Assembly: GCA_007135125.1 (NCBI GenBank)
Contig: SLJK01000032.1
Span: forward strand, 16,237-80,236
Source: Syntrophomonadaceae bacterium
Lineage (GTDB): Bacteria > Bacillota > Dethiobacteria > DTU022 > UBA8154
Length of the DNA stretch: 64,000 bases
Direction: 5' to 3'
The translations under genes were made by a program, and so were the position numbers. Under the pieces are notes generated by a model. The model saw only the letters and a program-made list of their open reading frames with translations, made no database searches and had not been told where the DNA came from. Positions 1 through 55,712 of this stretch are shown piece by piece; position 1 is the first letter of the stretch; each line of letters opens with the position of its first letter.

Positions 1-159
1 GCTCTCGATCCTGACTCCAATAAGCTAATTACTTCGCGGATCTTGATCGATGCTACCACGCCCTACGAATGGGAAAACAAGCCCCAAGAAGTAGCCATGG
101 ACAGTGAGACCATGGAGAAAGTTCACTCTCGCTGGAAAGAGTACGGTTTTGACTTTTAA
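1..159 (+). CDS. UbiD-family (de)carboxylase, C-terminal fragment (5' truncated by window edge)
   Basis: Frame 1 reads ALDPDSNKLITSRILIDATTPYEWENKPQEVAMDSETMEKVHSRWKEYGFDF*. The W-x-KYGF C-terminal motif parallels the C-terminus of the complete UbiD paralog at 2937-4370 (…LANWEKYGFTK). Confidence 0.55.
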   Translation, partial: ALDPDSNKLITSRILIDATTPYEWENKPQEVAMDSETMEKVHSRWKEYGFDF

Positions 160-229
160 CGTCTTTCAGCATATTGTGTTAAAAGCCACTTATCCCCAAA
201 AAATGTTATATGAAAGGAGTTAACATCCA

Positions 230-772
230 ATGATGCAAAAAAATGTTGCTCAAGCTGTGGAGAAAGCAAAAAAAATTAAGCTTGTTGTTTTCGATGTCCA
301 TGGAGTATTAACTGATAATACGGTTATTTACGATGATGAAGGGAGGCGCTTACGGGCTTTTTGCCATGAGGATGGTTTTGGTTGTAATGCGCTGATGCTT
401 ATGGGTGTCGAGGTGGCCGTAATCACCAGGAAGTCAAAATCAGTAGCCGCCAGGATGGAAGATATCGGGATTAAACGGTTTTACCAAACCAAGGAAAAGA
501 TTGTCCAGTATGAACAACTACTAGAAGAACTTGGCATAACTGATGAAGAAGTTTGTTATGTGGGTGATGAAATTATTGATATCGGGGTAATGAAAAGAGT
601 TGGGTTTGCCGTAGCTCCTTCCGATGCAAAAACAATGGCTATGGATGTGGCGCACTGGGTTACCGAAAAAGCGGGGGGGAAAGGTGTAGCGAGAGAACTT
701 GCAGAGTTTATCCTGGAAGCACAGGGTAAATGGGGGACTTTCTGTGAAAAGGTAATGAGTAAAGGCTGGTAA
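230..772 (+). CDS. HAD-IIIA phosphatase, KdsC/YrbI-like (candidate PpcD-like phosphatase subunit)
   Basis: 180 aa. LVVFDVHGVLTD (DxDGV-type motif I), VITRKSK, YVGDEIID and GGKGVARE match KDO-8-P phosphatase-family motifs. RBS GAAAGGAG upstream. Confidence 0.8.
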   Translation: MMQKNVAQAVEKAKKIKLVVFDVHGVLTDNTVIYDDEGRRLRAFCHEDGFGCNALMLMGVEVAVITRKSKSVAARMEDIGIKRFYQTKEKIVQYEQLLEELGITDEEVCYVGDEIIDIGVMKRVGFAVAPSDAKTMAMDVAHWVTEKAGGKGVARELAEFILEAQGKWGTFCEKVMSKGW

Positions 773-912
773 CAATTCCCTTTTATGTAGGATAGTGTTT
801 AGGGTAAAATGTTAATTCTTGGAAGGGATTTTTATTTTATTGTCTTATAATACGATTAGTACAATGTGTTTTGGTTCTGGCTGGGGCCAGTTAGAAAAGG
901 GGCTAGTAGCTT

Positions 913-2856
913 ATGGATAAAAACAATCTCTCCTTTCCGTTTTTCGAACAGTCCTCCTCAGAGGACAACTGGTACGGGCAGGATCTGAACAGAGAAACGG
1001 AAAAACATAATAGTCAGTTACTTGCTTCGGGAGAGTCGAGAAGAGAGCTTCTTAAAGAACGTAAAAGGGTGATTCAGTGGAGGATATTAAATGAAGCCAC
1101 TGCCATCTTAAATTCTCAGCTGCACTCGGAAAGCCTTCCCCTTAAATTTATTAAATGTGCAAAGAAATTAGTCTCTGCCGGAGAGGCGCTCTTGGCTTTA
1201 AAAGAAGAAAAAGATGCGAGTCTGACTATTATTAAACATTACTCCACTACCGAGGGTTCTGGGGAAAAGCTGGTTGAAGAAAAATCCCAAAACCCTCAGG
1301 GTGCCATCAAGATTATTATGGAAAACGAAGAAGTTATTAATAGGAACTCATCGCAATTTCCTTCTCATGAACTTTACGGTTTTTATTCCATAAAAAAGAG
1401 TCTTCTGGGGATCCCGATCTATGCAAGCGGGAAAGTTATAGGTGCCCTTTTGATGGCCAACAAATGGGAAGAGGATTCTTTTACCCGTGACGACCAGGAG
1501 CTGCTGCTAATTTTAGGTGCCCAGCTGGGTATAGCCCTGGAAAACTCCAGGCTTTATGAAAAAACTGATGAGAAGCTGCAGGCAAAAGTGGAAGAGTTGG
1601 AACAGGTTAACGACCTTCTGACAAAAAAACATAAAGTGCTGGCTAAATCTTTGGAAATTCACAAGCAGTTAACCGATTTAGCTCTGCGAGGGGAGGGAAT
1701 AGAAGCTATCTGTAACACCCTGGTCTCCATTATTGGTTCACCAATTCAGGTTGAAGATTGTGCCTTTAATATTAAGGCAACGACCATGGAGCACTTAACC
1801 GGGGATTTTCTTAGTGGCAGGAACCTGGTAGATGGTTGTGGATATGAGCGACACTCAAATGAGCTTTTTAAAGGAAGAAAAGCGGTGGAAATTACCCTGG
1901 ATTCTAACACTACTCAATATATGGTCCCTATTATTGCAGGTCAGCAAGTCCTGGGGATCATAACCACGGTTTATGCAGATAGGTCTCTTGGCCAGCTAGA
2001 TAGGGTGGCTATGGAACAGGGAGCAACCATTATTGCCCTGGAAATGCTGAAGGAAAAAGCTGCCGTGGAGCAAACTCGACGCTTGCGGGAACACTTTTTG
2101 GAGCAGGTGCTGGAAAAAGATTATGAAAGCGAAGAGTGGGTGCATCATCGTGCTCTGCAGCTGGGATTTAATTTGAAGCATGCCTGCCAGGTGATGACAG
2201 TGGAGATCGAGCCCGGCCCAAAAGACAGGAGCCGGCCTGAACTATACCAGGAAATAAGGGAGTTCTATATAGACTCTACTACCAATGTTATTGTTATTAT
2301 CAAACATAATAGGGCCATAGTAATGCTCTCTTTCGACCCCCTGGAAGAGAAAGACGGGGTCAAACACCTTGCCGAATTGTTAAAGAAGTGGCTGGAGCAG
2401 TCGGTACAGGACGGCACCTGGTGGATTGCCCTGGGTACTATTTGCTATCAATTAGAAGACTGCGCTATTTCCTACCGAAAGGCAATTACAACTCTTGACA
2501 TTATGAAGGCTTTAAGGCTTACCCAAAAAATAGTTTCCAACGATAACCTGGGGATCTTTTCATTGATCGAAATTAACACCCAAAACTTTGCAGAATTCAC
2601 GCAAAGAACCCTGGGAGAGCTGTTGGATTATGATCAGAAGCATAAAACGCAGCTGGTGAGCACTTTAAACCTGTACTATAGACATAATGCTAATGTCCTG
2701 AAAGCATCCCGCCAGGGCTACCTGAATCCCAGCACCATGAAATACAGGTTGCGGAGAATACAGGAGATCACTGGTTTGGACTTAAAAGATGCCGATGTAG
2801 GCTTGCAGCTGCAGTTTGCTCTGAAATTAATGGAATTTGTTTGGTCAGATAGTTGA
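913..2856 (+). CDS. GAF-domain / PucR (CdaR)-family transcriptional regulator
   Basis: 647 aa. Central GAF-like block (…GIPIYASGKVIGALLMANKWEED…LGIALENSRLYE), a coiled-coil, and a C-terminal PucR-type HTH (…STMKYRLRRIQEITGLDL…). Confidence 0.7.
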   Translation: MDKNNLSFPFFEQSSSEDNWYGQDLNRETEKHNSQLLASGESRRELLKERKRVIQWRILNEATAILNSQLHSESLPLKFIKCAKKLVSAGEALLALKEEKDASLTIIKHYSTTEGSGEKLVEEKSQNPQGAIKIIMENEEVINRNSSQFPSHELYGFYSIKKSLLGIPIYASGKVIGALLMANKWEEDSFTRDDQELLLILGAQLGIALENSRLYEKTDEKLQAKVEELEQVNDLLTKKHKVLAKSLEIHKQLTDLALRGEGIEAICNTLVSIIGSPIQVEDCAFNIKATTMEHLTGDFLSGRNLVDGCGYERHSNELFKGRKAVEITLDSNTTQYMVPIIAGQQVLGIITTVYADRSLGQLDRVAMEQGATIIALEMLKEKAAVEQTRRLREHFLEQVLEKDYESEEWVHHRALQLGFNLKHACQVMTVEIEPGPKDRSRPELYQEIREFYIDSTTNVIVIIKHNRAIVMLSFDPLEEKDGVKHLAELLKKWLEQSVQDGTWWIALGTICYQLEDCAISYRKAITTLDIMKALRLTQKIVSNDNLGIFSLIEINTQNFAEFTQRTLGELLDYDQKHKTQLVSTLNLYYRHNANVLKASRQGYLNPSTMKYRLRRIQEITGLDLKDADVGLQLQFALKLMEFVWSDS

Positions 2857-2936
2857 ACATGTGCTGTGCTTCATTTGGAAGAAGGTAGTTAGAGGTATTA
2901 AGTTGAAATTAAAATATAAAGGAGGCTGTGCAAAAG

Positions 2937-4370
2937 GTGTATAAAGACAACCGAGAATTTATGAAAGCGCTGGAGGCTGCAGGAGAACTGGTTACCATTG
3001 ATCAGGAAGTGGACTGGGACATGGAAGCGGGAGCAATAGTCCGCAAGGTTTGTGAAGACAAGGCACCTTCTCCCCTGATGAACAAAATCAAGGATTACCC
3101 CGGGCATCGATACCTGGGAGCGCCCCTGGCAAACTACCGCAAGTTGGCCATAGCTATGGGCATGGATCCGGATAGCAGTATCCCTGAGATTGCTGCAGAA
3201 TACTTGGAGCGCACCAACAGAGAACCGGTAAAACCTGTTATTGTTGAAAAAGATCAGGCACCTTGCAAGGAAAATATTATTACAGGCGATGATGTTGACC
3301 TTTTTACTCTGCCTGCTCCCATGGTCCATGAAGGTGATGGGGGACGGTACCTGGCAACCTGGCATTTTGTGGTAACCAAGGACCCTGACAAGCAGGAAGT
3401 TAACTGGGGAATGTACAGGCAGATGGTTTATAATTCCAAAATAATGACCGGACCGCTATTTCCTTTTTCCGGTGGTGGCCAGGTTTTCCACGGGAAATAT
3501 GTTCCCCGCGGTGAGGCTATGCCTTTTGCTACTGTGATTGGCCCGGATCCCCTTGGTGCTATTGCGGGTTCCGCCCCCACAGCTATCCCTGAGCCGGAAT
3601 ATACGGGGCAGCTTTTGGGGAAACCTGTGGAACTGGTGAAATGTGAAACAGTGGATTTGGAAGTCCCCGCCAATGCCGAAATAATTATTGAGGGGTATAT
3701 TCTTCCTGATGTATCGATAGAGGAGGGACCTTTCGGTGAGTACACTGGTTACCGTACTTCTCCGAGAGATACTCGCACGGTTTACCAGGTAACTGCCATC
3801 ACCCATAGAAATGATCCCATAACCACCATTTCCAATATGGGTGTTCCCACCGACGAGGGGCAGCTTTTGCGTTCTTTCACCCTGGGTTTGGAAATGGATA
3901 GGATGCTTCGCAACCAGGGTATCCCTATAACGGGAGTGTATATGCTGCCCGAATCGACTCACCACCTGGTTGTAGTTGGAGTTAAGCCGCTTTATACTAA
4001 TATAGCGGCACAAATTGCTCAAACTGTTTTTGGTAGTTCGCTGGGTATGTGGTTCCATATGGTTGTGGTAGTAGATGATAAAACAGATATTTATAATTTC
4101 AACGAAGTTTTGCATGCCCTAAGTACTCGCTGTCATCCTGTAAACGGCATACATGTCTGGCAGGGAGTGGGGACACCCCTCTATCCTTTCCTCAGCGCGG
4201 CGGAAAGGAAGAAATCAGTAGGCCCTAAAGTTCTCTTTGACTGCACCTTCCCGTTGGACTGGGATCCATTAAGCGAGGTGCCCAGACTTGTTTCTTTCAA
4301 GACAGTTTATCCCCAGGAGATCCAGGACAAGGTTCTGGCCAACTGGGAAAAATATGGCTTTACAAAATAG
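2937..4370 (+). CDS. UbiD-family prFMN-dependent (de)carboxylase (phenylphosphate carboxylase alpha/beta-like)
   Basis: The ORF track starts at GTG 2928. GTG 2937 has better AGGAGG spacing and gives MYKDNREF…, typical of a UbiD N-terminus. About 478 aa, with UbiD-like blocks throughout (…GPFGEYTGYR…, …WHFVVTKD…). Confidence 0.8.
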   Translation: MYKDNREFMKALEAAGELVTIDQEVDWDMEAGAIVRKVCEDKAPSPLMNKIKDYPGHRYLGAPLANYRKLAIAMGMDPDSSIPEIAAEYLERTNREPVKPVIVEKDQAPCKENIITGDDVDLFTLPAPMVHEGDGGRYLATWHFVVTKDPDKQEVNWGMYRQMVYNSKIMTGPLFPFSGGGQVFHGKYVPRGEAMPFATVIGPDPLGAIAGSAPTAIPEPEYTGQLLGKPVELVKCETVDLEVPANAEIIIEGYILPDVSIEEGPFGEYTGYRTSPRDTRTVYQVTAITHRNDPITTISNMGVPTDEGQLLRSFTLGLEMDRMLRNQGIPITGVYMLPESTHHLVVVGVKPLYTNIAAQIAQTVFGSSLGMWFHMVVVVDDKTDIYNFNEVLHALSTRCHPVNGIHVWQGVGTPLYPFLSAAERKKSVGPKVLFDCTFPLDWDPLSEVPRLVSFKTVYPQEIQDKVLANWEKYGFTK

Positions 4371-4386
4371 TAAAGGAGGAAATATA

Positions 4387-4641
4387 ATGGCTCGCTATGA
4401 TGTTTTTATAAACAGCTTGGCAGATCTGCCTGAAGGAAAAGAGGTTCAACTTGCGATAAGGGATCTTTCGCCGGGAATTCATAAGTACTGCTATCAGGAT
4501 GTACTGGCCATGGTCTCTCCTGACCCCGAGAAATATGATGAAAAAATGCAGGTTCGTTATGGCAGGGGACAGGCACATCCACAACTATTCTCTATCAAAA
4601 TACAGGAGAATGTTGAAAGGATTCCGGAGCGATGGAGGTAG
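4387..4641 (+). CDS. small (85 aa) protein translationally coupled between two UbiD paralogs (candidate PpcC-like small subunit)
   Basis: The ORF track lists 4288-4641. The plausible start is ATG 4387, directly after the upstream stop and with RBS AAAGGAGGAAATATA. MARYDVFINSLADLPEGKEVQLAIRDL… The 3' end overlaps the next UbiD start by 10 nt. Confidence 0.5.
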   Translation: MARYDVFINSLADLPEGKEVQLAIRDLSPGIHKYCYQDVLAMVSPDPEKYDEKMQVRYGRGQAHPQLFSIKIQENVERIPERWR

Positions 4642-5999
4642 ACTTAAGAAGTTTTCTTCATACTTTAAAAGAAAATAAAGAACTTATAGAACTTGAGGAC
4701 GAAGTCAGCCCCCGTTACGAAGTTACTTCCATTTTCAAAGAGGTGCTGGGGGAGCAGGGAGGTCCGGCTGTCCTTTTGCACAATGTGAGCGGTTATCCCG
4801 GCCGGAAGTTGGCAGGGAACCTTTTGGCCAGCCGTGAAAAGATGGCTTTAGCCCTGGGGTGCCAGGTGGAAGATTTAAGGGACGCATATCTGAAAGGGCG
4901 CTTTGCTTCCCTGGAGCCTGTGCAGGTGCAAGGTAGTGCTCCGGCACAGGAAGAAACAGTGGCAGAAGAGATAGATCTTCTATCTCTTCTGCCCGCACCT
5001 ATTTTTCATCAGGGTGATGCCGGGCCTTACCTTACAGCAGGTGTGCTTTTGGCTAAAGATCCCGATACAGGGGTAATGAACAGTGGAATTCACAGGCTGC
5101 AACTAAAAGGCAAAACTAGGCTGGGGGTGTTTCTGGCTACACCGCCTCTGTCAAATTATTTCAAGAGATCTGAAGAAGAAGGTAAACCCCTGCAGGTGGC
5201 AGTAGCATTAGGTCTGCATCCAGCCGAGCTTTTAGCAGCAGCCGTTTCTCTTAAGGAGGGCATGAAAAGCAAGATTCATCTGGCCGGAGGTTTAGCCGGA
5301 CGAGGAATGCCGCTTACTCCAGCCAAAACCCTGGATATGATGGTGCCAGCCACGGCGGAAATTATCCTAGAGGGACATTTACTTCCTGGTATAAGAGAAG
5401 CAGAAGGACCTTTTGGAGAAAGTACCGGCTATTATTTTGAGGCGGAAAGCCCCATTTTGGAGATACAAGCGGTTACGTTTCGTAAGGATCCCATTCTTAC
5501 CGTTATTCCGCCCTGGGGAATCGAAACGGATATTATACTTGCAGTTTTTAGCGGAGCTGAACTGTGGAAGGAGCTGCACAGGGTTATTCCTGAAGTAAGA
5601 GATGTTACTTTTTTACCGGGCTCCCTCACTTTTCAGGGAGTTATCCAGGTGAGTGAATCACTTTCCAGGGAAAAAATAAGGCAACTGATTTACCTGGCTT
5701 TAAATTTGGATCGACGCCTGAAACACGTGATAGTGGTCGACGATGATGTGGATATTCATAGTTCTAGAGAGGTTTTATGGGCACTGGGGACTCGTTTTCA
5801 GGGCTCTACTGACCTCATTTGCCTCCCGGGCCTGGAAGGGTATGTTATTGATCCTTCCACCCAGGAAGGAGAAACAGCGAAACTTGGTTTTGATGCAACT
5901 GCACGACCGGAGGGGCCATATAGCAAGCGTTACCGGAGTCTTTCCCTTCCCCGGGAATCAATTTTAAAGGCAAAAAACATTCTGGAACAGAGGAGATGA
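4632..5999 (+). CDS. UbiD-family (de)carboxylase paralog
   Basis: 455 aa (MEVDLRSFLHTLKENKELIELEDEV…GPFGESTGYY…). Second complete UbiD paralog. Start overlaps the small ORF and the stop overlaps ubiX (ATGA). Confidence 0.8.
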   Translation: MEVDLRSFLHTLKENKELIELEDEVSPRYEVTSIFKEVLGEQGGPAVLLHNVSGYPGRKLAGNLLASREKMALALGCQVEDLRDAYLKGRFASLEPVQVQGSAPAQEETVAEEIDLLSLLPAPIFHQGDAGPYLTAGVLLAKDPDTGVMNSGIHRLQLKGKTRLGVFLATPPLSNYFKRSEEEGKPLQVAVALGLHPAELLAAAVSLKEGMKSKIHLAGGLAGRGMPLTPAKTLDMMVPATAEIILEGHLLPGIREAEGPFGESTGYYFEAESPILEIQAVTFRKDPILTVIPPWGIETDIILAVFSGAELWKELHRVIPEVRDVTFLPGSLTFQGVIQVSESLSREKIRQLIYLALNLDRRLKHVIVVDDDVDIHSSREVLWALGTRFQGSTDLICLPGLEGYVIDPSTQEGETAKLGFDATARPEGPYSKRYRSLSLPRESILKAKNILEQRR

Positions 6000-6610
6000 T
6001 GCCCGTGCGAATCGTAGTGGGTATATCCGGTGCGACTGGAGTGATCTACGGGATTAGGATCATGGAAATACTCAAGGAGCTTGAAGTGGAAACTCACCTG
6101 ATAATATCCGATGCAGGTAAGAAAAACATTGAGCTGGAAACCGGGTACGAAGTGGCCAGAGTTGAAGCGCTGGCGACAGAAGTTCATGATATATGTAACG
6201 TAGGTGCTTCTATTTCCAGTGGTTCTTTTAAAACCCATGGTATGATTGTTGCTCCCTGTTCTATCAAGAGCCTTTCTGCTATTGCTAATTCTTTCAATAA
6301 TAACCTGCTTATCAGGTCGGCAGATGTTACTTTAAAGGAAAAAAGAAAGCTGGTTATGATAGTAAGGGAGACGCCCTTGCACGTAGGTCATTTGCGGCTT
6401 ATGACAATGGTGGCGGAGGCAGGGGGAGTGCTGCTACCTCCAATGCCTGCTTTTTATAATCACCCTGAAACATTAGAAGATATGATTGACCAGACGGCGG
6501 GAAAAGCTCTGGACCAGTTCGGCATTGAGCATAACCTCTTTAACCGTTGGTACGGTACCGATTCGGCCAGAAGAAGAAACAAAGAAGCTTTAAAAAGGGG
6601 TTTGTTGTAA
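5996..6610 (+). CDS. ubiX: flavin prenyltransferase UbiX (prFMN synthase)
   Basis: 204 aa. IVVGISGATGVIYGIRIMEIL…MIVAPCSIKSLSAIANSF…RETPL is a classic UbiX/Pad1 flavoprotein. The start may be ATG 5999. Confidence 0.85.
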   Translation: MMPVRIVVGISGATGVIYGIRIMEILKELEVETHLIISDAGKKNIELETGYEVARVEALATEVHDICNVGASISSGSFKTHGMIVAPCSIKSLSAIANSFNNNLLIRSADVTLKEKRKLVMIVRETPLHVGHLRLMTMVAEAGGVLLPPMPAFYNHPETLEDMIDQTAGKALDQFGIEHNLFNRWYGTDSARRRNKEALKRGLL

Positions 6611-6614
6611 ACTC

Positions 6615-7139
6615 ATGGAAGAAATTATCGAAAGCAAGGAAATCTTTAACGGAAAAATTATCCGTGTCCGCCTGGATAAAGTAAGACTTCCCGATGGAAA
6701 GGAAAGTCAAAGGGAAATTGTGCAGCTCGGCGGCGCTGTAGCTATGGTGCCAGTTGATGAGAAAGGAAATATTTATTTCGTTAGACAATATAGAAAGCCC
6801 ATTGAAAAAGTTTTACTTGAAATACCGGCAGGGCGACTTGAACCGCCAGAAATTCCTGAGGATTGTGCTCGCCGGGAATTAGCAGAAGAGATCGGTTTGT
6901 GGCCGGATAAAATTAATAAACTTTCAGATTTCTTTTCCTCGCCTGGTTTTTCCAACGAGAATATCACTATATTTTTGGCCAGGAATTTGAGGAAGAGCAA
7001 AATGCGTCCGGATGAAGGAGAGTTTATTGATGTGGTATTATATCCTTTCTCTAAAGCATTAGCCATGATTAGTAGTGGAGAGATTCAGGACGGTAAAACA
7101 ATTGCGGGACTCCTGTTGGCCCATTATTTTCTGCAGTAG
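6615..7139 (+). CDS. NUDIX hydrolase (ADP-ribose pyrophosphatase NudF-like)
   Basis: 174 aa. Nudix box GRLEPPEIPEDCARRELAEEIGL (Gx5Ex7REUxEExGU). Confidence 0.8.
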   Translation: MEEIIESKEIFNGKIIRVRLDKVRLPDGKESQREIVQLGGAVAMVPVDEKGNIYFVRQYRKPIEKVLLEIPAGRLEPPEIPEDCARRELAEEIGLWPDKINKLSDFFSSPGFSNENITIFLARNLRKSKMRPDEGEFIDVVLYPFSKALAMISSGEIQDGKTIAGLLLAHYFLQ

Positions 7140-7212
7140 TAGTAATAGAAGAAGGTATTTTTCAATAGCGGTATCAGGTATATTTCAATATCTAAGAGTA
7201 AGAGGACTTTGG

Positions 7213-7250
7213 GGTATCTTTGTAGAATAGATACCTCACTTATTTTTTTA
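7213..7250 (+). terminator. rho-independent terminator after NUDIX gene
   Basis: Stem GGTATCT / AGATACC with a 9-nt loop, then a TATTTTTTTA U-tract. Confidence 0.5.
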
Positions 7251-7280
7251 TACCATATTTTATGGTAAGGGAGTGAACTT

Positions 7281-8384
7281 ATGGAAAAAATTTCGAAACG
7301 CCCCTGTTTAGATCAAATTACTCCTTATGTGCCCGGAAAACCTATTGAGGAGGTGGAAAGGGAGCTGGGGATAAAAGGAGTTATTAAATTAGCTTCCAAT
7401 GAAAATCCTCTTGGCCCTTCTTCTTTGGCTCAGGAGGCTATAAAGGAGTTTGCGCCTGAGGTAGGCATGTATCCTGATGGAAATTGCTTTTATTTAAAAG
7501 GAGAATTAGCCGATTATCTTGGGGTAACAGAAAAGAACATTGTTATGGGAAATGGAGCTGATGATCTTATCACCCTGGCCGGTCTTGCTTACTTGAACCC
7601 AGGGGATGAGATTATAATGGCGCAGCCCACTTTCTCACAATACGGATTTTCTGCCAGGCTTATGGATGCTATCCCGGTCAAAGTTCCGTCCCAGGATTTC
7701 CGTCATGACTTGAATGCTATAGCTGCAGCTATTACTGACAAGACGAAGATAATTTTTATCTGTAATCCCAACAATCCTACGGGCACCATTGTTACCAGGG
7801 AAGAGATGGAGACTTTCATTAAAAAGATCCCCACGAGTGTCCTGGTGGTTATTGACGAAGCATACTATGAATATGCCAGTGACCCTAAATATCCGCAGAG
7901 CATTGAGTTATTAAAAGAGGGTTATAATGTCTTTATCCTACGTACTTTTTCTAAGATATTCGGACTGGCTGGCTTGCGAGTAGGCTATGGATTGGCCCCG
8001 GAAAATGTTGTTACTGATATCAATACGGTTCGTGAACCTTTTAACGTAAATGCCATTGCCCAGTATGCTGCCAGGGCGGCGCTGAAAGACAAAAAACATG
8101 TCGAGGAAGGGCGCAGGATTAACGAGGAGGGCAAGATATACCTGGCAGAAGAATTTGAGCGCCTAAACCTTTTCCATCTTCCCACAGAAGCAAATTTTGT
8201 TTTTGTAGATGTAGGTGTGGATTCCCGCAAGCTTTTCCCGGTAATGTTGAAAAAAGGTGTTATTGTAAGAACAGGAGATATTTTTGGATATCCTGAGTTT
8301 ATCAGGTTAACTATTGGCACCCAGGAGCAAAATCGCCGTTTTATCAAAGCTTTTGAGGAGAGCATTAAAGAACTGCAAGGTTAG
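7281..8384 (+). CDS. hisC: histidinol-phosphate aminotransferase
   Basis: 367 aa. …LASNENPLGPS…, …FSKIFGLAGLRVGY… is PLP class-II aminotransferase and HisC-like throughout. RBS GGGAG. Confidence 0.85.
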   Translation: MEKISKRPCLDQITPYVPGKPIEEVERELGIKGVIKLASNENPLGPSSLAQEAIKEFAPEVGMYPDGNCFYLKGELADYLGVTEKNIVMGNGADDLITLAGLAYLNPGDEIIMAQPTFSQYGFSARLMDAIPVKVPSQDFRHDLNAIAAAITDKTKIIFICNPNNPTGTIVTREEMETFIKKIPTSVLVVIDEAYYEYASDPKYPQSIELLKEGYNVFILRTFSKIFGLAGLRVGYGLAPENVVTDINTVREPFNVNAIAQYAARAALKDKKHVEEGRRINEEGKIYLAEEFERLNLFHLPTEANFVFVDVGVDSRKLFPVMLKKGVIVRTGDIFGYPEFIRLTIGTQEQNRRFIKAFEESIKELQG

Positions 8385-28442: not shown

Positions 28443-29210
28443 CTATACCGTCATTGAGCCTCCATCTACCATAATAGTTTCTCCTGTAATATAACTGGAT
28501 GCCTCCGAGGATAAAAATAATACCGGATGAACGATTTCAGACGGTTCGGCAATTCTGCCCAGGGGAATATTGTTGATTATATTATCGTAGTTTTCTTGGT
28601 TGGACCAGAAAGGTTTGCTGAAATGGGTTTTTACCATGGCCGGCGCCACAGCATTAACCTGGATATTATACGGAGCTAGTTCTGAGGCCAGCACTTTGGT
28701 AAGCATTTCTAAACCGGCTTTTGCTATACCGTAAATTCCCATTCCGGCAGAAGCTTTTCGTGATGCTATGGAAGAGATATTAATAATTTTGCCGCTTTGT
28801 TGTTCTTTCATGATCTCGGCAGCTTTTTTTGAACAGAGAAACGTTCCTCCCAGGTTTGTCTCTACGATTTTTTGCCACAGGGAATAGTCAGTTTCTAATG
28901 TAGATGGAGTAACCAGATTCATACCCACATTATTGACAAGGACGTCAAGACGTCCAAACTTTTCCAGGGTAGCCCTGAAAAGTTTGGCTACATCTTCTTC
29001 CCTGGCAATATGTGCGGTCATCGCCAGTACATTATCTTTATTGTCAAGGCCTTCCAGGACAGCCTCTATTCCTTCTTTCTTTCTGCCGCAGAAAGCCACC
29101 TTTGCTTTTTGTTCTAACAGCGTCTTTACCATCTCCAGGCCAATACCCCTGGTTCCCCCGGTTACTAAAAACACTTTATTTTCCAGGCCATACCAACAAT
29201 TAGAAGGCAT
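28443..29210 (-). CDS. short-chain dehydrogenase/reductase (FabG-like)
   Basis: TGGTRGIG Rossmann motif, NNVG, S…YxxxK (IYGIAKAG) catalytic motif. Confidence 0.8.
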   Translation of the reverse strand: MPSNCWYGLENKVFLVTGGTRGIGLEMVKTLLEQKAKVAFCGRKKEGIEAVLEGLDNKDNVLAMTAHIAREEDVAKLFRATLEKFGRLDVLVNNVGMNLVTPSTLETDYSLWQKIVETNLGGTFLCSKKAAEIMKEQQSGKIINISSIASRKASAGMGIYGIAKAGLEMLTKVLASELAPYNIQVNAVAPAMVKTHFSKPFWSNQENYDNIINNIPLGRIAEPSEIVHPVLFLSSEASSYITGETIMVDGGSMTV

Positions 29211-29403
29211 CCAAAACTCCTTTCGTTAACCGCATCTTCTCAAAACATTTTGTCTTTTTTATAAAGATTCTCTTAAGTAATAAAAATTCCTTCCCTTGCG
29301 AAAATATTTATAAGGGAAAATATGTCAAGGTTAACAAATATTTTTAGACACAAAAATTGAAACGATCCTTGTCGGGTTAGTTACATCCTTGGGCGAGTTA
29401 GGG

Positions 29404-29432
29404 TTGATTTTTTTACAAAAAAATAATATAAT
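29404..29432 (+). promoter_or_regulatory. sigma-A promoter for tRNA-Arg(CCT)
   Basis: TTGATT, a 17-nt spacer, then TATAAT, about 30 nt upstream of the tRNA 5' end. Confidence 0.4.
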
Positions 29433-29467
29433 ACCTGCAGCGTTGATAGGCTTCTTTACACAGGTGA

Positions 29468-29543
29468 GCACCTGTAGCTCAGGGGATAGAGCACCGGATT
29501 CCTAATCCGGGTGTCGGAGGTTCGATCCCTCCCAGGTGCACCA
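29468..29543 (+). tRNA. tRNA-Arg (anticodon CCT), CCA encoded
   Basis: 76-nt cloverleaf folded by hand: acceptor GCACCTG/CAGGTGC, anticodon stem CCGGA/TCCGG, loop TTCCTAA, T-loop TTCGATC. Confidence 0.8.
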
Positions 29544-29585
29544 TTTTTATGGCTAAACTTTTTTGCTTGGCAGCTAAATTAATAA

Positions 29586-29621
29586 AAGGATGCTTCCTAA
29601 GAAAGGAAGCATCCTTTTATT
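29586..29621. terminator. intrinsic terminator between tRNA and thiolase (bidirectional)
   Basis: 12-bp stem AAGGATGCTTCC / GGAAGCATCCTT, a 7-nt loop, flanked by A-run and T-run. Confidence 0.5.
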
Positions 29622-29681
29622 AAAAAGAGTTATTTTTCGAAAACCCGGTTAAATACAAATTGATTGTTTACTGCATAATGA

Positions 29682-30878
29682 TTAACCGGTTACCTTAACA
29701 ATGAGGCTGGCACCTGTGTCGCCGGCGGCACATCCGGTAAAGAGCCCGTAACCACCGCCCACTATGACTAATTCTTCGATCATTTCAGCAATACATCGAC
29801 CGGCAGTAGGTCCCTGCGGGTGCCCGAATATCATAGAGCTGCCATAGTTATTGAAGCTCATGGGGTCTAATCCCATTTTTTTGGACATATATACATCATT
29901 AGCAGCAAAAGGGTTGTGTGTTTTTATAACTTTTATATCTTTCAGGGCAAGCCCAGCATTTTTCAGTGCATTTTCCGCTGCCGGCACAGGGGCAGCAGCC
30001 ATAAACCCTTTATCTACCCTGGTGAATCCATAGGAGACAACCTGTATCTCTACGTTTTTGTCCGCACTTAATTCCTGTGCTTTTTCTTTGGTGGTAACGA
30101 TAAAACCACAGTTGCCATCGGCAGGATGGGTTTGGACTCCAGAACTGTGCACGCCGTCTGGTAGGAACGCTTTAAGGGAAGCAAGCCCTTCTTTAGTTCT
30201 TGGTGTGACTCCTTCGTCGGCTTCCAGGGTGCCCCTTTTCTTCCTGCTGATCTTATATTCCACGGGAAACATATAACGTTTCTGGAATTCGCGGTCGTTA
30301 GCGAGAGATTCCTGGTACTGCTCGTAACGACGAAGGGCAACTTCATCACAGAGTTCCTTGGTAATTCCTTCAATTGAGCAAGCAGTATTCTCCGCTGTTT
30401 TGATCATGGGGAGTCCTACCCAGGGGTCGGCATTGAAGTTATCCATCATCCAGTTTTCAGAGATTACTTCGCCACCCGGGCCCAACGGGTTAGGCCAAAC
30501 CGTATGAGGTCCGTTGGAGCAACGGTCTGTCATAAGACAGAAAGCCAGGTTAAGGTTTCCTGTTTCCACGTTCATGGCTGCATAATTGAGACATGTGGTA
30601 GATGTGGAGCAAGCTTGAGAAATATGCAAAGCAGGAACCTGTTCTGCCCCCAGCATGCCGCCGGCCCAGGTGGATGCATAAAATGTGTGCAGCTGCCCTA
30701 TTGTTTTTCCAAAAACAACGTAATCGATCATTGCCGGATCAAAACTCTTTGAGTCAAGCCACCGCTTGGCAGTGACTGCCCCCAGCTCGATAGCATTGTC
30801 ATTTTGCAGGCTGCCCTGCCAGCGTGCGAATGGTGAGCTGAAGTAGCCACGGAATGGAATAAACGCTTTTTCATACAT
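29682..30878 (-). CDS. thiolase-family acyl-CoA acetyl/acyltransferase
   Basis: …QACSTSTTCLNYAA… (active-site Cys), C-terminal …GCAAGDTGASLIV… The track ORF extends to 30995. ATG 30878 with RBS AAGGAGG is the likely start (MYEKAF…). Confidence 0.8.
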   Translation of the reverse strand: MYEKAFIPFRGYFSSPFARWQGSLQNDNAIELGAVTAKRWLDSKSFDPAMIDYVVFGKTIGQLHTFYASTWAGGMLGAEQVPALHISQACSTSTTCLNYAAMNVETGNLNLAFCLMTDRCSNGPHTVWPNPLGPGGEVISENWMMDNFNADPWVGLPMIKTAENTACSIEGITKELCDEVALRRYEQYQESLANDREFQKRYMFPVEYKISRKKRGTLEADEGVTPRTKEGLASLKAFLPDGVHSSGVQTHPADGNCGFIVTTKEKAQELSADKNVEIQVVSYGFTRVDKGFMAAAPVPAAENALKNAGLALKDIKVIKTHNPFAANDVYMSKKMGLDPMSFNNYGSSMIFGHPQGPTAGRCIAEMIEELVIVGGGYGLFTGCAAGDTGASLIVKVTG

Positions 30879-30931
30879 TGAATGAAACCTCCTTGATAAT
30901 AATTCAACTACTCCCGAATTTAGTCGGTGGT

Positions 30932-30945
30932 AGTTTGATTTGCTG
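30932..30945. promoter_or_regulatory. perfect 14-bp palindrome GCTGCTTAAGCAGC (candidate operator) upstream of thiolase
   Basis: Self-complementary 14-mer 54-67 nt upstream of the thiolase start codon. Confidence 0.25.
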
Positions 30946-31282
30946 CTTAAGCAGCCCCAAATTATGCAACCGCAAAAATATCTAACCTCATACAAACAAA
31001 AAATGATACAGCTTATCCGCGCATGTTGTCCCCGCTATGGATTGTACACCTCCTTTTTGTGCATGATTGGAAAAAGTGATGCCGGTATCCGATAAACAGC
31101 TATTCAATGAATATTTCAACTTCCTCTTTGTATATTCGCCATAAATAATGCTTTCCCTGCCAGCTGCACTTCAAAAAGGTTTATCAATAATTAACGGTCT
31201 GCTACAAAAAAAATCAAAGATAAGAGGAATGGGGTCGACAGGTGCAGAAAAATAGATAAAGCAAAGAAAGGGGGATTGGTTA

Positions 31283-32941
31283 ATGATAACAATGAAAGCT
31301 GAAGAAGGCAGGCAGTTATGTGAAGAAAAAATATTTCCGCGAAACTTTACCAGGTTTGGTTTAGATGTGAACCCTATTGTGTCTTTTGCAAGTGGCTTTT
31401 TTGTAGTAGTCTTTTCCTTGTTTGCACTTTTAAATTTAGATCTGGCAAGCAGGTTGTTTGAAGCCATGAATGAAGCCATTGTAACGAATTTTGACTGGGT
31501 TTTCATTTTATCCAGTAATTTTTTTATCATAGTTTGCCTGTTCCTGGCCTTATCCAGGTTGGGCACGGTTAGAATTGGAGGTGTTCATGCCCAGGTAGAG
31601 TTTACCAATTTTGCCTGGTATTCGATGCTGCTTTCTGCCGGTATGGGCATAGGCTTGATGTTTTGGGCAGTGGGTGAACCCCTGCATCATTTTGCTAATA
31701 CTCCTCCTATCTTTGGCAGCCCTGAGGCAGCCCACACCTCTTTGGCGACCACTTTTTTCCACTGGGGATTACATCCCTGGGGGATATATGCTTTAATGTC
31801 TCTGGGACTGGCATTTTTTGCCTTTAATAAACAGTTACCCTTATCTTTGCGGTCTGTTTTTTATCCTTTGCTGAAAGATAAAATTTGCGGCCCTCTGGGG
31901 GACTTAATTGATACTTTTGCGGTGTTGTCGGTACTGTTTGGGCTGGCTACCTCCTTGGGACTTGGCATTCAGCAGATCAACAGTGGACTGGATTACATGA
32001 CTGGAGTCGGCTTCTCGGTAAGCATACAGATAATTTTAATAGCTTTAATAACTTTGATTGCTATTATTTCTGTTTTGGCAGGTATTGATAAAGGTATTAA
32101 GTTTTTGGCTACCCTTAATATGAAAATTGCCCTTGTTTTTATGGTAATTATTTTCCTTTTGGGTCCGACAGGTTATATACTGCGTCTTTTTTCCAATTCT
32201 CTGGGCTTATACATTGGCAATATTGTGGCAGACTCGTTTTATATAGCTGTGGGTGATGGTTCGTGGCAGGGTAGTTGGTCAATTTTTTATTTGGCCTGGT
32301 GGATTTCCTGGTCACCTTTTGTGGGGATGTTTATTGCCCGGATTTCCAAAGGGAGAACAGTGCGGGAGTTAATTCTGGGGGTCCTAATTGTTCCTTCATT
32401 GCTCTCCTTTTTTTGGCTCTCTGTGTTTGGAGGAACGGCTATATCAATAGATCAGGCTATGGGTGGCTCCCTTTTTGAGGTGGTCCGGGATGATCTTCCC
32501 GTGGCGCTCTTTGAGATGATTAGCTTTTTAAGTGTGCCGGTGTTGGCGGATCTGGCGAGGATGGCCATGTTTATTCTGGCTACAGTTCTTGTAATCGTCT
32601 ATTTTATAACCTCTTCCGATTCAGGTTCTCTGGTGGTAGATAAGATGACTTCTGGCGGGAAGATCAATACCCCGGCCAAACAGCGGGTTTTCTGGTGTTC
32701 CCTGGAAGGATTGATTGCCGCAGTGCTGCTTATAATCGGCGGGGAACAGGCCCTGGAAGCTTTGCAAACCGCGGTAATAAGTGCAGGACTTCCTCTCTCT
32801 ATTATACTGGTTGTTATGACCATTTCGCTTGTAAAAGGGCTGGAAGCTGCACATACTAAACAAATGTGGGTTTTAGATGCTAAAAGGTTTGAAAGGTTTA
32901 TTCATGCACGTTCCGAGGAGGAGGAAACGGAAGGTGAATAA
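31283..32941 (+). CDS. BCCT-family (betaine/carnitine/choline) transporter
   Basis: 552 aa, 12 TM, with the BCCT signature …WGLHPWGIYALMSLGLAFFAFNK…. Confidence 0.85.
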   Translation: MITMKAEEGRQLCEEKIFPRNFTRFGLDVNPIVSFASGFFVVVFSLFALLNLDLASRLFEAMNEAIVTNFDWVFILSSNFFIIVCLFLALSRLGTVRIGGVHAQVEFTNFAWYSMLLSAGMGIGLMFWAVGEPLHHFANTPPIFGSPEAAHTSLATTFFHWGLHPWGIYALMSLGLAFFAFNKQLPLSLRSVFYPLLKDKICGPLGDLIDTFAVLSVLFGLATSLGLGIQQINSGLDYMTGVGFSVSIQIILIALITLIAIISVLAGIDKGIKFLATLNMKIALVFMVIIFLLGPTGYILRLFSNSLGLYIGNIVADSFYIAVGDGSWQGSWSIFYLAWWISWSPFVGMFIARISKGRTVRELILGVLIVPSLLSFFWLSVFGGTAISIDQAMGGSLFEVVRDDLPVALFEMISFLSVPVLADLARMAMFILATVLVIVYFITSSDSGSLVVDKMTSGGKINTPAKQRVFWCSLEGLIAAVLLIIGGEQALEALQTAVISAGLPLSIILVVMTISLVKGLEAAHTKQMWVLDAKRFERFIHARSEEEETEGE

Positions 32942-38850: not shown

Positions 38851-40431
38851 TCATAAGGAGCGGAGCTTGAAGCGCTGTATTTTGCCGGTGGTGCTTTTCG
38901 GCAATTCGGCAGCTATTTCGATCCAACGTGGATACTTGTACTTGGCCAGCCTTTCCAGAACCCAGTTTTTTAGCTCCTCCTCCAGATTTTCCACCCTCTC
39001 ATGACTTTCGCGGAGTACTACAAAGGCTTTCGGCTTTATCAGGTTGTTTTCGTCAGCTTGCCCTATTACAGCAGACTCAAAGACAGCTGGGTGACTGTTA
39101 AGGCAATTTTCAATTTCCACCGGAGATACCCAAATCCCGCCGACTTTTAACATATCGTCAGACCTTCCTGCACACCAGTAGTATCCATCTTCATCCACGT
39201 AAAATTTGTCTCCCGTATTTATCCATTCCCCCTGCATGGTTATGCGTGTTTTTTCGCGTTTACGCCAGTATTGCTGAGCTGCGCTGTCACCTTTAACCAG
39301 CAGTGTCCCTATTTCACCCTGGGGCACTTCGTCTCCCTGGTCATCTACCAACTTCAATTCATATCCCGGAACCGGTTTGCCGGTGGAACCTGGTTTTATT
39401 TCGCCGGGACGGTTGGAGAGGAAGATATGAAGCATTTCACTCGACCCCATGCCGTCTAAAATATCTATCCCAAAACGTTTTTTCCAGCGGTGGTAGAGAT
39501 CCTCCGGCAGCGCTTCCCCTGCTGATACACATATTCTTACAGAAGATAATTCGTGGTTTCCGTTAGGGTCAGGGGTTGTTCCTGTTTCCTGATCTTGATG
39601 TTCTTTATACTTCAACATCTGCCCATAAAGGGTGGGAACACCGAAAAACACCGTGGGGCGGTAATATTCCAGGTTTTTGAAAACATTTTCCGGTGAAGGG
39701 GGACGAGAGTCCAGGACGGCGGAAGCTCCTACAGAGAGAGGGAAGTACATACCATTTCCCAAACCGTAGGCAAAAAACAGCCTGGCCGGGGAATAGCAGA
39801 TATCTTCTTCAGTCAATTCCAGCACCTCTTTTGCATAATTATTAGAGGTAACGACCATGTCATACTGGGAATGAATGGCTCCTTTTGGAGGTCCTGTAGA
39901 ACCTGAGCTGTAAAGCCAGAAACCTACATCATCTTTAGTTGTGCGTGCGGTTTTGAGCATGGTAGGGGCCTGCCTGTACTTTTGCTTGAAAGGAATATGA
40001 GCCCCATTAATCTCCGAGATGACTATTAGATCACGCAAATAATATAATTCTCCCTTAATGTTTTGTACAACGGGCTGCATTTCATCAGAAATTACGAGTG
40101 CTCGCACACGGCTGTCGTTAAGATAATATTCGTAATCTTCAGGGGTGAGCATGGTGTTAACCGGTATGGGCACCGCCCCAATTTTAATAGCCCCCCAAAA
40201 TACTGCGTAAAATTGTGGAACATCCAGCATGATAATAAGTATTTTGTCGTCGATTCTCAGGCCGAGTTCCCTAAATCCATTGGCAGTCTTATTTGCCATT
40301 TTGTGGATATCATTATAAGAATAATTGCGGTGTGCCGTATAAACGGCGACTTTATGTCCCCGACCCTGCCTGATGTTACGATCCAAAAAATAGTCAGCGG
40401 CATTAAAAAATTCCTGTTCTACCCCATGCAC
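38851..40431 (-). CDS. aromatic acid-CoA ligase of the benzoate/4-hydroxybenzoate-CoA ligase (BadA/HbaA/BclA) family
   Basis: Block-by-block match recalled from BadA: FWLYSSGSTGPPKG, RLFFAYGLGNGMYFP, SSEMLHIFLSN, DMLKVGGIWVSP, LAKYKYPRWIEIAAELPKSTTGKIQRFKLR. Confidence 0.85.
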   Translation of the reverse strand: MHGVEQEFFNAADYFLDRNIRQGRGHKVAVYTAHRNYSYNDIHKMANKTANGFRELGLRIDDKILIIMLDVPQFYAVFWGAIKIGAVPIPVNTMLTPEDYEYYLNDSRVRALVISDEMQPVVQNIKGELYYLRDLIVISEINGAHIPFKQKYRQAPTMLKTARTTKDDVGFWLYSSGSTGPPKGAIHSQYDMVVTSNNYAKEVLELTEEDICYSPARLFFAYGLGNGMYFPLSVGASAVLDSRPPSPENVFKNLEYYRPTVFFGVPTLYGQMLKYKEHQDQETGTTPDPNGNHELSSVRICVSAGEALPEDLYHRWKKRFGIDILDGMGSSEMLHIFLSNRPGEIKPGSTGKPVPGYELKLVDDQGDEVPQGEIGTLLVKGDSAAQQYWRKREKTRITMQGEWINTGDKFYVDEDGYYWCAGRSDDMLKVGGIWVSPVEIENCLNSHPAVFESAVIGQADENNLIKPKAFVVLRESHERVENLEEELKNWVLERLAKYKYPRWIEIAAELPKSTTGKIQRFKLRSL

Positions 40432-54929: not shown

Positions 54930-55712
54930 ATGAAATACAAGAAAATATCAGTAGTAGATAATCAAGGTATAGTAACCTTAACCCTGGAACGTCCGGAAGT
55001 ATTTAATGCCCTGGATGAACTTTCGGTACAGGAAATCAAGGAAGCTGTTTACCGCAGCGCTGAAAAAAGTGATTTAAGAGGTTTAATCATCACGGGCAGG
55101 GGGGAAAAGGCTTTCTCGGCGGGGGCAGACCTAAAGAGCCTCAGCTCCTTGAGTGCTGTAGAGTATTATAATTCCCTGGAGGATGCTCTGGAGGTACTTG
55201 AAAAAATATGGACTATGAAGGTGCCTACTGTTGCAGCTATTAATGGCCTGGCTTTGGGTGGAGGGTGTGAGCTTGCACTGGCCTGTGATTTTAGAATTGC
55301 TGTTCCAGAAGCGCGTATTGGTCTTCCCGAACTTAATCATGCTCTTTTACCCGGGTGGGGTGGAGTACACTTAATGTCACGCATTCTGGGCAGGGCCAAA
55401 ACTTTGGAACTGGTTTTAACCGGTGAACCTGTAAAGGGTGATAAAGCCTTGGAAATAGGGTTGGTGACAAAGATCGCTCCCAGGGAGCGGTTGCTTGAAG
55501 AAGCAGAGACTCTTATCAATAAAGTTGGCGAAAAGGGTCCTATTGCCATCAAACTGGTGAAGGAGATAGTGAATAATTACCAGGACACCGATATCAAAAA
55601 AGCTTTTTTCCACGAAGCTTTATGCAGCATGGCAGCTTTTGTCTCTGAGGATGCCCGCGAGGGTATAAAGGCATTTTCCAGCAACGAAAAACCGTTCTTT
55701 AAAGGTAAGTAA
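54930..55712 (+). CDS. enoyl-CoA hydratase/isomerase (crotonase) family
   Basis: …FSAGADLK…, …AAINGLALGGGCELALACDFRIA… is the crotonase oxyanion-hole signature. Confidence 0.85.
   Translation: MKYKKISVVDNQGIVTLTLERPEVFNALDELSVQEIKEAVYRSAEKSDLRGLIITGRGEKAFSAGADLKSLSSLSAVEYYNSLEDALEVLEKIWTMKVPTVAAINGLALGGGCELALACDFRIAVPEARIGLPELNHALLPGWGGVHLMSRILGRAKTLELVLTGEPVKGDKALEIGLVTKIAPRERLLEEAETLINKVGEKGPIAIKLVKEIVNNYQDTDIKKAFFHEALCSMAAFVSEDAREGIKAFSSNEKPFFKGK

Follow-up and report, generated by a model that had tools for sequence, protein, structure and literature searches.

Results and Discussion

The window analyzed here is a 64,000-nucleotide stretch of contig SLJK01000032.1 from a Syntrophomonadaceae bacterium (assembly GCA_007135125.1), and the element in question is an open reading frame (ORF) at positions 230-772 of its forward strand, which encodes a phosphatase of the HAD superfamily with a KdsC-type fold. 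The ORF lies among UbiD-family genes and very probably encodes PpcD, the delta subunit of phenylphosphate carboxylase, which catalyzes the second step in the anaerobic breakdown of phenol. This reading is based on the fold of the product, its retained catalytic residues, the positional orthology of the gene, and its phylogenetic placement. Within the PpcD family, a tree and a residue comparison assign the product to a subclade, designated DxH here because a histidine takes the place of the second aspartate (Asp+2) of the first active-site motif.

Gene content of the cluster

The window opens on the 3' end of ppcB (1-159), encoding the UbiD-family beta subunit; the 52-residue fragment matches TIGR02724 only, and the full gene, whose start lies about 1.26 kb ahead of the window, encodes 471 residues and scores 740 bits with that model (cut-off 469). 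The ORF at 230-772 follows, starting with ATG, encoding 180 residues and preceded by an AGGAG box 10 nt 5' of the start. Further downstream, on the same forward strand, are a 647-residue regulator with GAF, GGDEF-like and PucR-type helix-turn-helix domains (913-2856; Pfam GAF, GGDEF_2, HTH_30), ppcA for the UbiD-family alpha subunit (2928-4370, started at 2937 in public gene calls; TIGR02723 722 bits, cut-off 565), and ppcC for an 84-residue gamma subunit (4387-4641), the product of which scores 86.9 bits with PF09662 (cut-off 25) and falls below the TIGR02725 cut-off (90.7 vs. 135.6 bits). The cluster continues with a third UbiD paralog that is VdcC-like (4632-5999; TIGR00148, 302 bits), a UbiX flavin prenyltransferase (5996-6610; NF004685, 260 bits) and a Nudix hydrolase (6615-7139; PF00293). 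The initial annotation had placed the phosphatase between UbiD paralogs, and the flanking paralogs can now be named as PpcB-type (1-159) and PpcA-type (2928-4370). UbiX would supply prenylated flavin mononucleotide (prFMN) to the UbiD subunits, with the Nudix hydrolase possibly providing the prFMN precursor. The genes ppcC and the third ubiD overlap by 10 nt (4632-4641) and the third ubiD and ubiX by 4 nt (5996-5999), suggesting translational coupling of ppcC, ubiD and ubiX. A scan of 1-7400 for promoters and terminators found no terminator in the stretch from ppcB through ppcD to the regulator and, overall, fewer sites than in shuffled sequences, and is therefore given no weight here.

The same contig is present in further public assemblies (ENA ERZ27301262; NCBI GCA_007126665.1, GCA_003563065.1, GCA_007122375.1 and GCA_003555065.1). 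A divergent gene pair located 2.7-5.6 kb upstream of the ORF encodes a 614-residue PEP-utilizers protein that shares 54% identity with Aromatoleum PpsA and a 356-residue PPDK_N protein that shares 42% with PpsB. These sizes and domain types are those of the alpha and beta subunits of phenylphosphate synthase, for which sizes from Desulfatiglans anilini are available (PMC6114531). Genes for phenylphosphate synthase (ppsA and ppsB), the first enzyme of the pathway, are therefore linked to the ORF, outside the window.

Fold and family assignment

Over its full length, the product of the ORF belongs to the KdsC/YrbI branch of HAD proteins (capless C0 type). It matches KdsC-type PDB sequences over its full length (phmmer, E = 3e-36 to 4e-27), with residues 7-168 aligned to E. 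coli KdsC (2R8E), and passes the YrbI subfamily model TIGR01670 of NCBIfam with 139 bits (cut-off 107); canonical-type PpcD relatives match this model likewise. An AlphaFold2 model (mean pLDDT 96.2, from a 106-sequence alignment) superposes on E. coli YrbI/KdsC structures with TM scores of 0.86-0.91 and a root-mean-square deviation of about 1.1 Å (Foldseek). Therefore, the PDB matches, the TIGR01670 score and the superposition together bear out the KdsC-type homology proposed in the initial annotation. All top PDB matches are of KdsC type, and no chain in the PDB matched the delta subunit as PpcD.

Equivalog models did not separate the two candidate functions. The product remains below the cut-off of the KdsC equivalog NF007019 (157.6 vs. 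208 bits; E. coli KdsC reaches 354 bits) and below that of the PpcD equivalog TIGR02726 (162.5 vs. 281.95 bits). Other DxH members score 124-162 bits with TIGR02726, and some of them reverse the order of the PpcD and KdsC scores. Hidden Markov model (HMM) scores alone were consequently rejected as the basis for a call, the two values being nearly equal and their order flipping among clade members, and gene neighborhood, phylogeny and sequence identity were used to decide instead. By identity, the product is closer to Aromatoleum aromaticum PpcD (49%) than to E. coli KdsC (42%).

Active-site residues of the DxH clade

The general catalytic set of HAD enzymes is present in the product, comprising the nucleophile Asp22 together with Thr66, Lys90, Asp113 and Asp117. 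These five residues are 99-100% conserved within the DxH clade; across the PpcD-family alignment as a whole, conservation of Thr66 is at least 90%. The initial annotation had credited the protein with all HAD-IIIA KdsC motifs, which does not hold for three of them: motif I reads F-D22-V-H24-G-V-L-T vs. D32-V-D34-G in E. coli KdsC, motif II reads T66-R-K-S-K vs. T-G/A-R, and motif IV reads G-D113-E114-I-I-D117 vs. GDDxxD. The residue at Asp+2 is the general acid/base in established HAD enzymology. Structurally, its backbone carbonyl ligates Mg2+ and its side chain touches the substrate phosphate (PMC10541634). In the ORF this position is occupied by His24 (codon CAT, 299-301).

The substitution is a property of the clade: among the 120 protein clusters closest to the ORF product, which share 49-100% identity with it, 118 have D-[VI]-H-G as motif I. 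In a column comparison of 74 KdsC-type (DxD), 112 canonical PpcD-type and 127 DxH sequences, all KdsC-type and all canonical PpcD-type sequences have Asp at position 24, and 99% of the DxH sequences have His. Additional positions are DxH-specific and at least 92% conserved, namely (with E. coli residues in brackets) His46 (V56), Asn53 (R63), Glu114 (D126), Gly119 (P131), Pro130 (V142) and, in motif II, Arg67-Lys68-Ser69-Lys70 (G77-R78-K79-A80); Val153, Leu157 and a C-terminal extension ending in Lys-Gly-Trp are further features of the clade. Residues that are invariant or near-invariant in the 74 KdsC-type sequences, Asp34, Arg78 and Asp126 in E. coli numbering, correspond to His24, Lys68 and Glu114 of the ORF product. 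Lys68 (R78 in KdsC), Cys109 and Trp168 are common to both PpcD types and distinguish them from KdsC, whereas Asp22, Lys90, Asp113, Asp117, Arg75 and Arg155 are universal across KdsC, canonical PpcD and DxH sequences. Carriers of the DxH type are mainly metagenome-assembled genomes (MAGs) labelled Bacillota/Clostridia, Deltaproteobacteria, Deferrisomatales and Thermoleophilia, rather than Betaproteobacteria. The organism names obtained for the protein clusters were Bacillota, Clostridia, Thermincola and Moorellales.

The histidine was also considered as a signature of PpcD in general. An in-silico H24D change raises the TIGR02726 score of the ORF product from 162.5 to 165.1 bits (+2.6), with the KdsC models shifting likewise, and with the opposite change, Asp to His, E. 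coli KdsC drops from 139.2 to 136.4 bits on TIGR02726. The A. aromaticum delta subunit (P0173) has L-D-V-D-G-V-M-T as motif I. The H24D probe and this DVDG motif rule out such a general signature.

One relative of the ORF product (P0118, 51% identity) has D-V-P-G (DVPGV) as motif I and G-S-Q-V-T-E as motif IV, with Asp+2 and the first Asp of motif IV gone. From these losses, P0118 is predicted to be a delta subunit that is probably catalytically dead.

Gene neighborhoods and phylogeny

Gene neighborhoods of homologs were scanned in one genome per GTDB species, which returned 80 loci; a separate protein search with PpcC gave only 10 close hits. The seven loci with at least 51% identity to the ORF product carry D-V-H-G and the 73 with at most 48% identity carry D-x-D. 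By record titles, the former originate from a Bacillota MAG, a soda-lake Syntrophomonadaceae MAG, a Thermincola MAG, a Kiloniellaceae member, two Deltaproteobacteria and a Deferrisomatales member. At all seven DxH loci, ppcB lies directly upstream and ppcA directly downstream, and none of them has a kdsD or lpt neighbor; ppcC follows ppcA at six, the remaining locus (L013) ending within ppcA. Among the DxD loci, in contrast, none of 73 has a UbiD neighbor and 65 adjoin kdsD, lptA and/or lptB. The split between DxH and DxD neighborhoods has a probability of about 3e-10 by hypergeometric arithmetic. Close relatives thus stand with ppcB and ppcA and distant ones with kdsD and lpt genes, in agreement with the PpcD-type function that the initial annotation had proposed from gene position.

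The regulator between ppcD and ppcA is found in this lineage only, loci L007-L013 having none at that position. At another DxH locus, L091, a GAF-PucR regulator with the architecture of the 913-2856 product (27% identity) is encoded upstream of the DxH cluster. The locus also holds genes of the molybdenum hydroxylase type (Ald_Xan_dh_C/MoCoBD domains) and the AMP-binding CoA ligase type, together with a PpsA-like gene, ppcB, delta, ppcA and ppcC. Such a gene set would take phenol as far as benzoyl-CoA.

A neighbor-joining (NJ) tree was built from 74 sequences that were non-redundant at 72% (172 columns, 100 bootstraps). A clade with 98% bootstrap support unites 13 canonical DxD PpcD-type sequences, P0242 and 16 DxH sequences, and the 44 KdsC-type (DxD) sequences fall outside it. 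Among the latter are sequences from Selenomonas (L069) and Veillonellaceae (L073), which are diderm Firmicutes; both sequences are DxD and their genes adjoin kdsD/lptB.

Comparison with Aromatoleum aromaticum and other relatives

The A. aromaticum delta subunit was found at locus L093 by a search with P0120, the nearest DxD relative. Gene order at L093 is ppsA-ppsB-ppsC(CBS)-ppcB-ppcD-ppcA-ppcC-ubiD-ubiX-RFK-nudix, where RFK denotes riboflavin kinase, and the order ppcB-ppcD-ppcA-ppcC-ubiD-ubiX, followed there by the RFK/NUDIX-type genes, is common to the cluster in the window. Besides PpsA, PpsB and PpcD, for which values are given above, the products at the two loci share 64% identity for PpcB, 62% for PpcA, 47% for PpcC, 46% for the UbiD after ppcC and 63% for UbiX. 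The shared gene order and these identities make the ORF the positional ortholog of ppcD. The two loci differ in that ppcA directly follows ppcD in A. aromaticum, whereas the regulator intervenes in the window; in that the pps genes are co-oriented in A. aromaticum and divergent here; in the CBS-type ppsC that lies between ppsB and ppcB in A. aromaticum; and in regulation, which is of the sigma-54 XylR type in A. aromaticum, while the cluster in the window has the GAF-PucR type.

At the protein level, canonical PpcD from Thauera and Aromatoleum has the same capless KdsC fold, nucleophile, Thr, Lys and Mg-binding residues as the ORF product. It differs by Asp at Asp+2, a DD motif IV and T-S-K-K-S as motif II, where the ORF product has His, DE and T-R-K-S-K, and by Ile and Val in the flap in place of His46 and Asn53. 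The 11-residue C-terminal extension of the ORF product, ending in the conserved K-G-W, is absent from canonical PpcD. E. coli KdsC also shares the fold, the nucleophile Asp, the Lys and the motif IV Asp residues, but its Asp34, Arg78, Arg63 and Asp126 are replaced by His, Lys, Asn and Glu in the ORF product, and its kdsD/lptCAB context is lacking around the ORF. The metagenomic DxD protein P0120 is 49% identical to the ORF product and is encoded beside a 471-residue ppcB-like UbiD; it keeps Asp at Asp+2 and a DD motif IV, is without the K-G-W tail, and scores 209.6 bits with TIGR02726. The comparison with PpcD that the initial annotation had suggested thus gives 49% identity to the A. aromaticum protein, with K68, C109 and W168 shared.

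Proposed role and mechanism

In Thauera aromatica, the alpha, beta and gamma subunits alone only exchange CO2 with 4-hydroxybenzoate, and the 18-kDa delta subunit restores phenylphosphate carboxylation by them (PMC6114531; PMC7500099, citing Schuhle & Fuchs 2004). The delta subunit turns phenylphosphate into a phenolate intermediate that is then carboxylated by alpha-beta-gamma (PMC6114531, PMC7500099), and on its own hydrolyzes phenylphosphate very slowly (PMC6114531). By orthology, the same role is assigned to the ORF product.

In the proposed sequence of events, phenol would first be phosphorylated by phenylphosphate synthase, encoded by the PpsA/PpsB-like genes upstream of the window. Asp22 of the delta subunit, with Mg2+ bound, would accept the phosphoryl group of phenylphosphate and free an enzyme-bound phenolate, which the alpha-beta-gamma core (two UbiD-type subunits and the 84-residue gamma subunit, with prFMN provided via UbiX) would para-carboxylate to 4-hydroxybenzoate. 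Hydrolysis of the aspartyl-phosphate would then render the carboxylation irreversible. His24, perhaps paired with Glu114, may be the base that activates water for this dephosphorylation. An aryl-oxide leaving group (pKa about 10) would need no acid catalysis, so that the reactive phenolate could stay unprotonated, the only form in which it would be of use.

His46 and Asn53 presumably lie in the hairpin that caps the neighboring active site in KdsC tetramers, and the C-terminal tail of E. coli KdsC modulates activity, as reportedly described by Biswas et al. (2009), where functional roles are reportedly also given for R63 and R78. PDB entry 3I6B is titled as YrbI lacking its last 8 residues, i.e., a tail-less enzyme. 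By analogy with these roles of hairpin and tail in KdsC, the residues of flap and tail that are specific to the clade probably alter how substrate reaches the site or how the subunit docks to the carboxylase core.

A further proposal, which we consider doubtful, is that DxH delta subunits, instead of being PpcD proteins that have simply drifted, handle the phosphoryl group in a mechanistically distinct way in the phenylphosphate carboxylases of strictly anaerobic, energy-limited bacteria. One possible form is a site (His24/Glu114, His46, Asn53 and K-G-W) that releases unprotonated phenolate directly into the UbiD site. A bolder possible form is a slowed hydrolysis of the aspartyl-phosphate, with transfer of the phosphoryl group to an acceptor other than water; if true, some of the ATP used to activate phenol would be regained.

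Other genes in and around the window

Additional genes upstream of the window touch on cofactor supply. The stretch L001:996-4254 encodes an LpdD-type chaperone (PF21758), a type-2 isopentenyl diphosphate (IPP) isomerase (TIGR02151, 340 bits), a 186-residue unannotated protein, and a CTP-dependent riboflavin kinase fused to a HAD-IA phosphatase. Together with UbiX and the Nudix hydrolase (5996-7139), this set could possibly form a prFMN-supply module around the carboxylase genes. About 2.3-2.5 kb upstream of the ORF, between ppsA and ppcB, a 73-residue ORF (L001:7475-7696) matches only the N-terminal third of GPR1/FUN34/YaaH transporters and looks like the remnant of an acetate-uptake transporter gene. 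Within the third UbiD paralog, a 33-nt near-perfect palindrome, GGCAGAAGAGATAGAAGATCTATCTCTTCTGCC (4961-4993; 15 pairs, 3-nt loop), was flagged by the terminator scan on the minus strand.

Elsewhere, scattered over 28443-30995, 38851-40431 and 54930-55712, the window encodes a short-chain dehydrogenase, a thiolase, an enoyl-CoA hydratase and a CoA ligase of the AMP-binding type. These could serve later steps in the CoA metabolism of aromatics or fatty acids; a 4-hydroxybenzoyl-CoA reductase was not seen in the window. A BCCT-family transporter (PF02028) at 31283-32941 is read as of the betaine/choline type, and a NuoE/NuoF-like and molybdopterin oxidoreductase set at 49.5-54.8 kb is possibly a NAD-linked formate dehydrogenase. 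The NCBI accessions of this contig are soda-lake sediment MAGs, and the isolate label of the closely related L008 record, T1Sed10_2, is likewise of a sediment type.

The initial annotation had also pointed to a monoderm spore-former without genes for the synthesis of 3-deoxy-D-manno-octulosonate (KDO) next to the phosphatase. The features it named were recovered in the window: a pair of Germane-domain and ECF sigma factor genes, DegV, and the gene order TsaE-TsaB-RimI-TsaD. Pfam lists for the genes called over about 82 kb of contig, beginning 10 kb ahead of the ORF and extending 8.5 kb beyond the window, include no family for KdsA, KdsB, Lpx, WaaA, Lpt or Bam/outer-membrane proteins, and the one ORF missing from these lists is a thiolase. 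Aromatoleum is a diderm phenol degrader and carries ppcD in the same gene order; therefore, a lipopolysaccharide (LPS) pathway in the genome would not argue against PpcD, and monoderm status is not needed for that assignment.

Alternative explanations

Several observations weigh against the assignment of the ORF as PpcD. The product falls short of the TIGR02726 cut-off, and its score there barely exceeds its KdsC score. Its motif I, D-V-H, departs from the canonical D-x-D of PpcD, and because canonical PpcD keeps Asp at Asp+2, the catalytic chemistry proposed for the DxH type would be an extrapolation. DxH-type members are known as sequences, from which their function is predicted. Support inside the PpcD clade is weak in the NJ tree, the only tree built, with 66% for DxH monophyly and 44% for P0120 as its sister. 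Additionally, no CBS-domain ppsC is present within the 10 kb upstream (L001:1-10000), and no 4-hydroxybenzoate-CoA ligase or reductase was identified in the window.

The loss of Asp+2 raises the question of whether the delta subunit is catalytically impaired and acts as a structural or regulatory module for phenylphosphate binding or docking. The replacement of Asp+2 in 99% of the clade and the change of motif IV from DD to DE fit such a module, as does the persistence of P0118, in which, judging by its motifs, catalysis is very probably lost. The very slow hydrolysis by the canonical delta subunit alone (PMC6114531) is also in keeping with it. However, the near-complete conservation of Asp22, Thr66, Lys90, Asp113 and Asp117 argues for retained phosphoryl transfer, histidine is a competent general base, and cleavage of the P-O bond is required, for which the cluster encodes no other phosphatase of this fold. 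An impaired delta subunit is therefore considered unlikely.

The substrate could instead be another activated aromatic compound, such as cresyl, catechyl or hydroquinone phosphate, or phenylphosphoamidate formed from aniline, rather than phenylphosphate from phenol. The delta and gamma subunits (49% and 47% identity) are far more diverged from their canonical counterparts than alpha and beta (62-64%), and clade-specific residues occupy the flap and active site (H46, N53 and R67-K70). The Thermincola MAG with a DxH locus bears the isolate label NRBC_bin_10V2, which refers to a nitrate-reducing benzene-degrading enrichment. PpcA and PpcB both pass equivalog cut-offs built on phenylphosphate carboxylase, and the gene order is that of phenol clusters, both of which speak for phenol. 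Desulfatiglans anilini does use Ppc-like UbiD subunits for aniline, but its aniline system is without gamma and delta (PMC7500099). Overall, a substrate other than phenylphosphate appears improbable.

An ordinary KdsC of a diderm Firmicute that lies among UbiD genes by chance is very unlikely. The TIGR01670 score and the KdsC enzymes among the best PDB matches would be expected of such a protein, and the public names "KDO 8-P phosphatase" and "KdsC family phosphatase" of clade members point the same way. Against this, the NF007019 score is below the cut-off, His stands where 74 of 74 KdsC-type (DxD) sequences have Asp, the conserved R78 is replaced by Lys, and the seven DxH loci have no kdsD or lpt neighbors. 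The KdsC proteins of actual diderm Firmicutes (L069, L073) are DxD, are encoded beside kdsD/lptB and are not part of the PpcD clade with its 98% support, and about 82 kb of the contig holds no KDO or LPS gene.

A phosphatase for a precursor of the UbiX/UbiD cofactor, involved in the handling of dimethylallyl pyrophosphate or monophosphate (DMAPP/DMAP) or in flavin mononucleotide (FMN) turnover, is the least plausible explanation: UbiX, the Nudix hydrolase, the type-2 IPP isomerase, the riboflavin kinase-HAD fusion and the LpdD-type chaperone are indeed encoded in the cluster, but the gene always lies between ppcB and ppcA and not beside ubiX, it is the positional ortholog of a canonical delta subunit that is required for carboxylation in T. 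aromatica (PMC6114531), and other candidates for precursor supply (the Nudix hydrolase and the riboflavin kinase-HAD fusion) are present.

Implications

The system around the ORF is the anaerobic phenol pathway known from textbooks; in this respect the finding is an ordinary one, and it overturns no current knowledge. Within this pathway, delta subunits of the Bacillota/Deltaproteobacteria type are predicted from their sequences to constitute a separate, well-conserved subclade with a histidine acid/base and a co-varied active site. A limited literature search found no description of this DxH subclade. Its members remain below the cut-offs of both NCBIfam equivalogs (TIGR02726 for PpcD and NF007019 for KdsC), and in public records (P0004-P0119, P0232, P0253) they are named "HAD-IIIA family hydrolase", "HAD hydrolase family protein", "KdsC family phosphatase" or "KDO 8-P phosphatase", with only one clade member named PpcD.

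More than 120 sequence clusters would thus be mislabelled as KDO or HAD-IIIA proteins, their members being a subunit of an enzyme of anaerobic phenol degradation. Labels of the KdsC type can mislead both the inference of LPS and a diderm envelope in Firmicute MAGs and the calling of aromatic-degradation pathways. In the data examined here, a motif I of D-V-H-G together with a ppcB or ppcA neighbor separates the two groups. The conserved change from Asp+2 to His, along with Glu114, the flap and the tail, provides ready mutational targets for the question of whether the leaving group becomes protonated.

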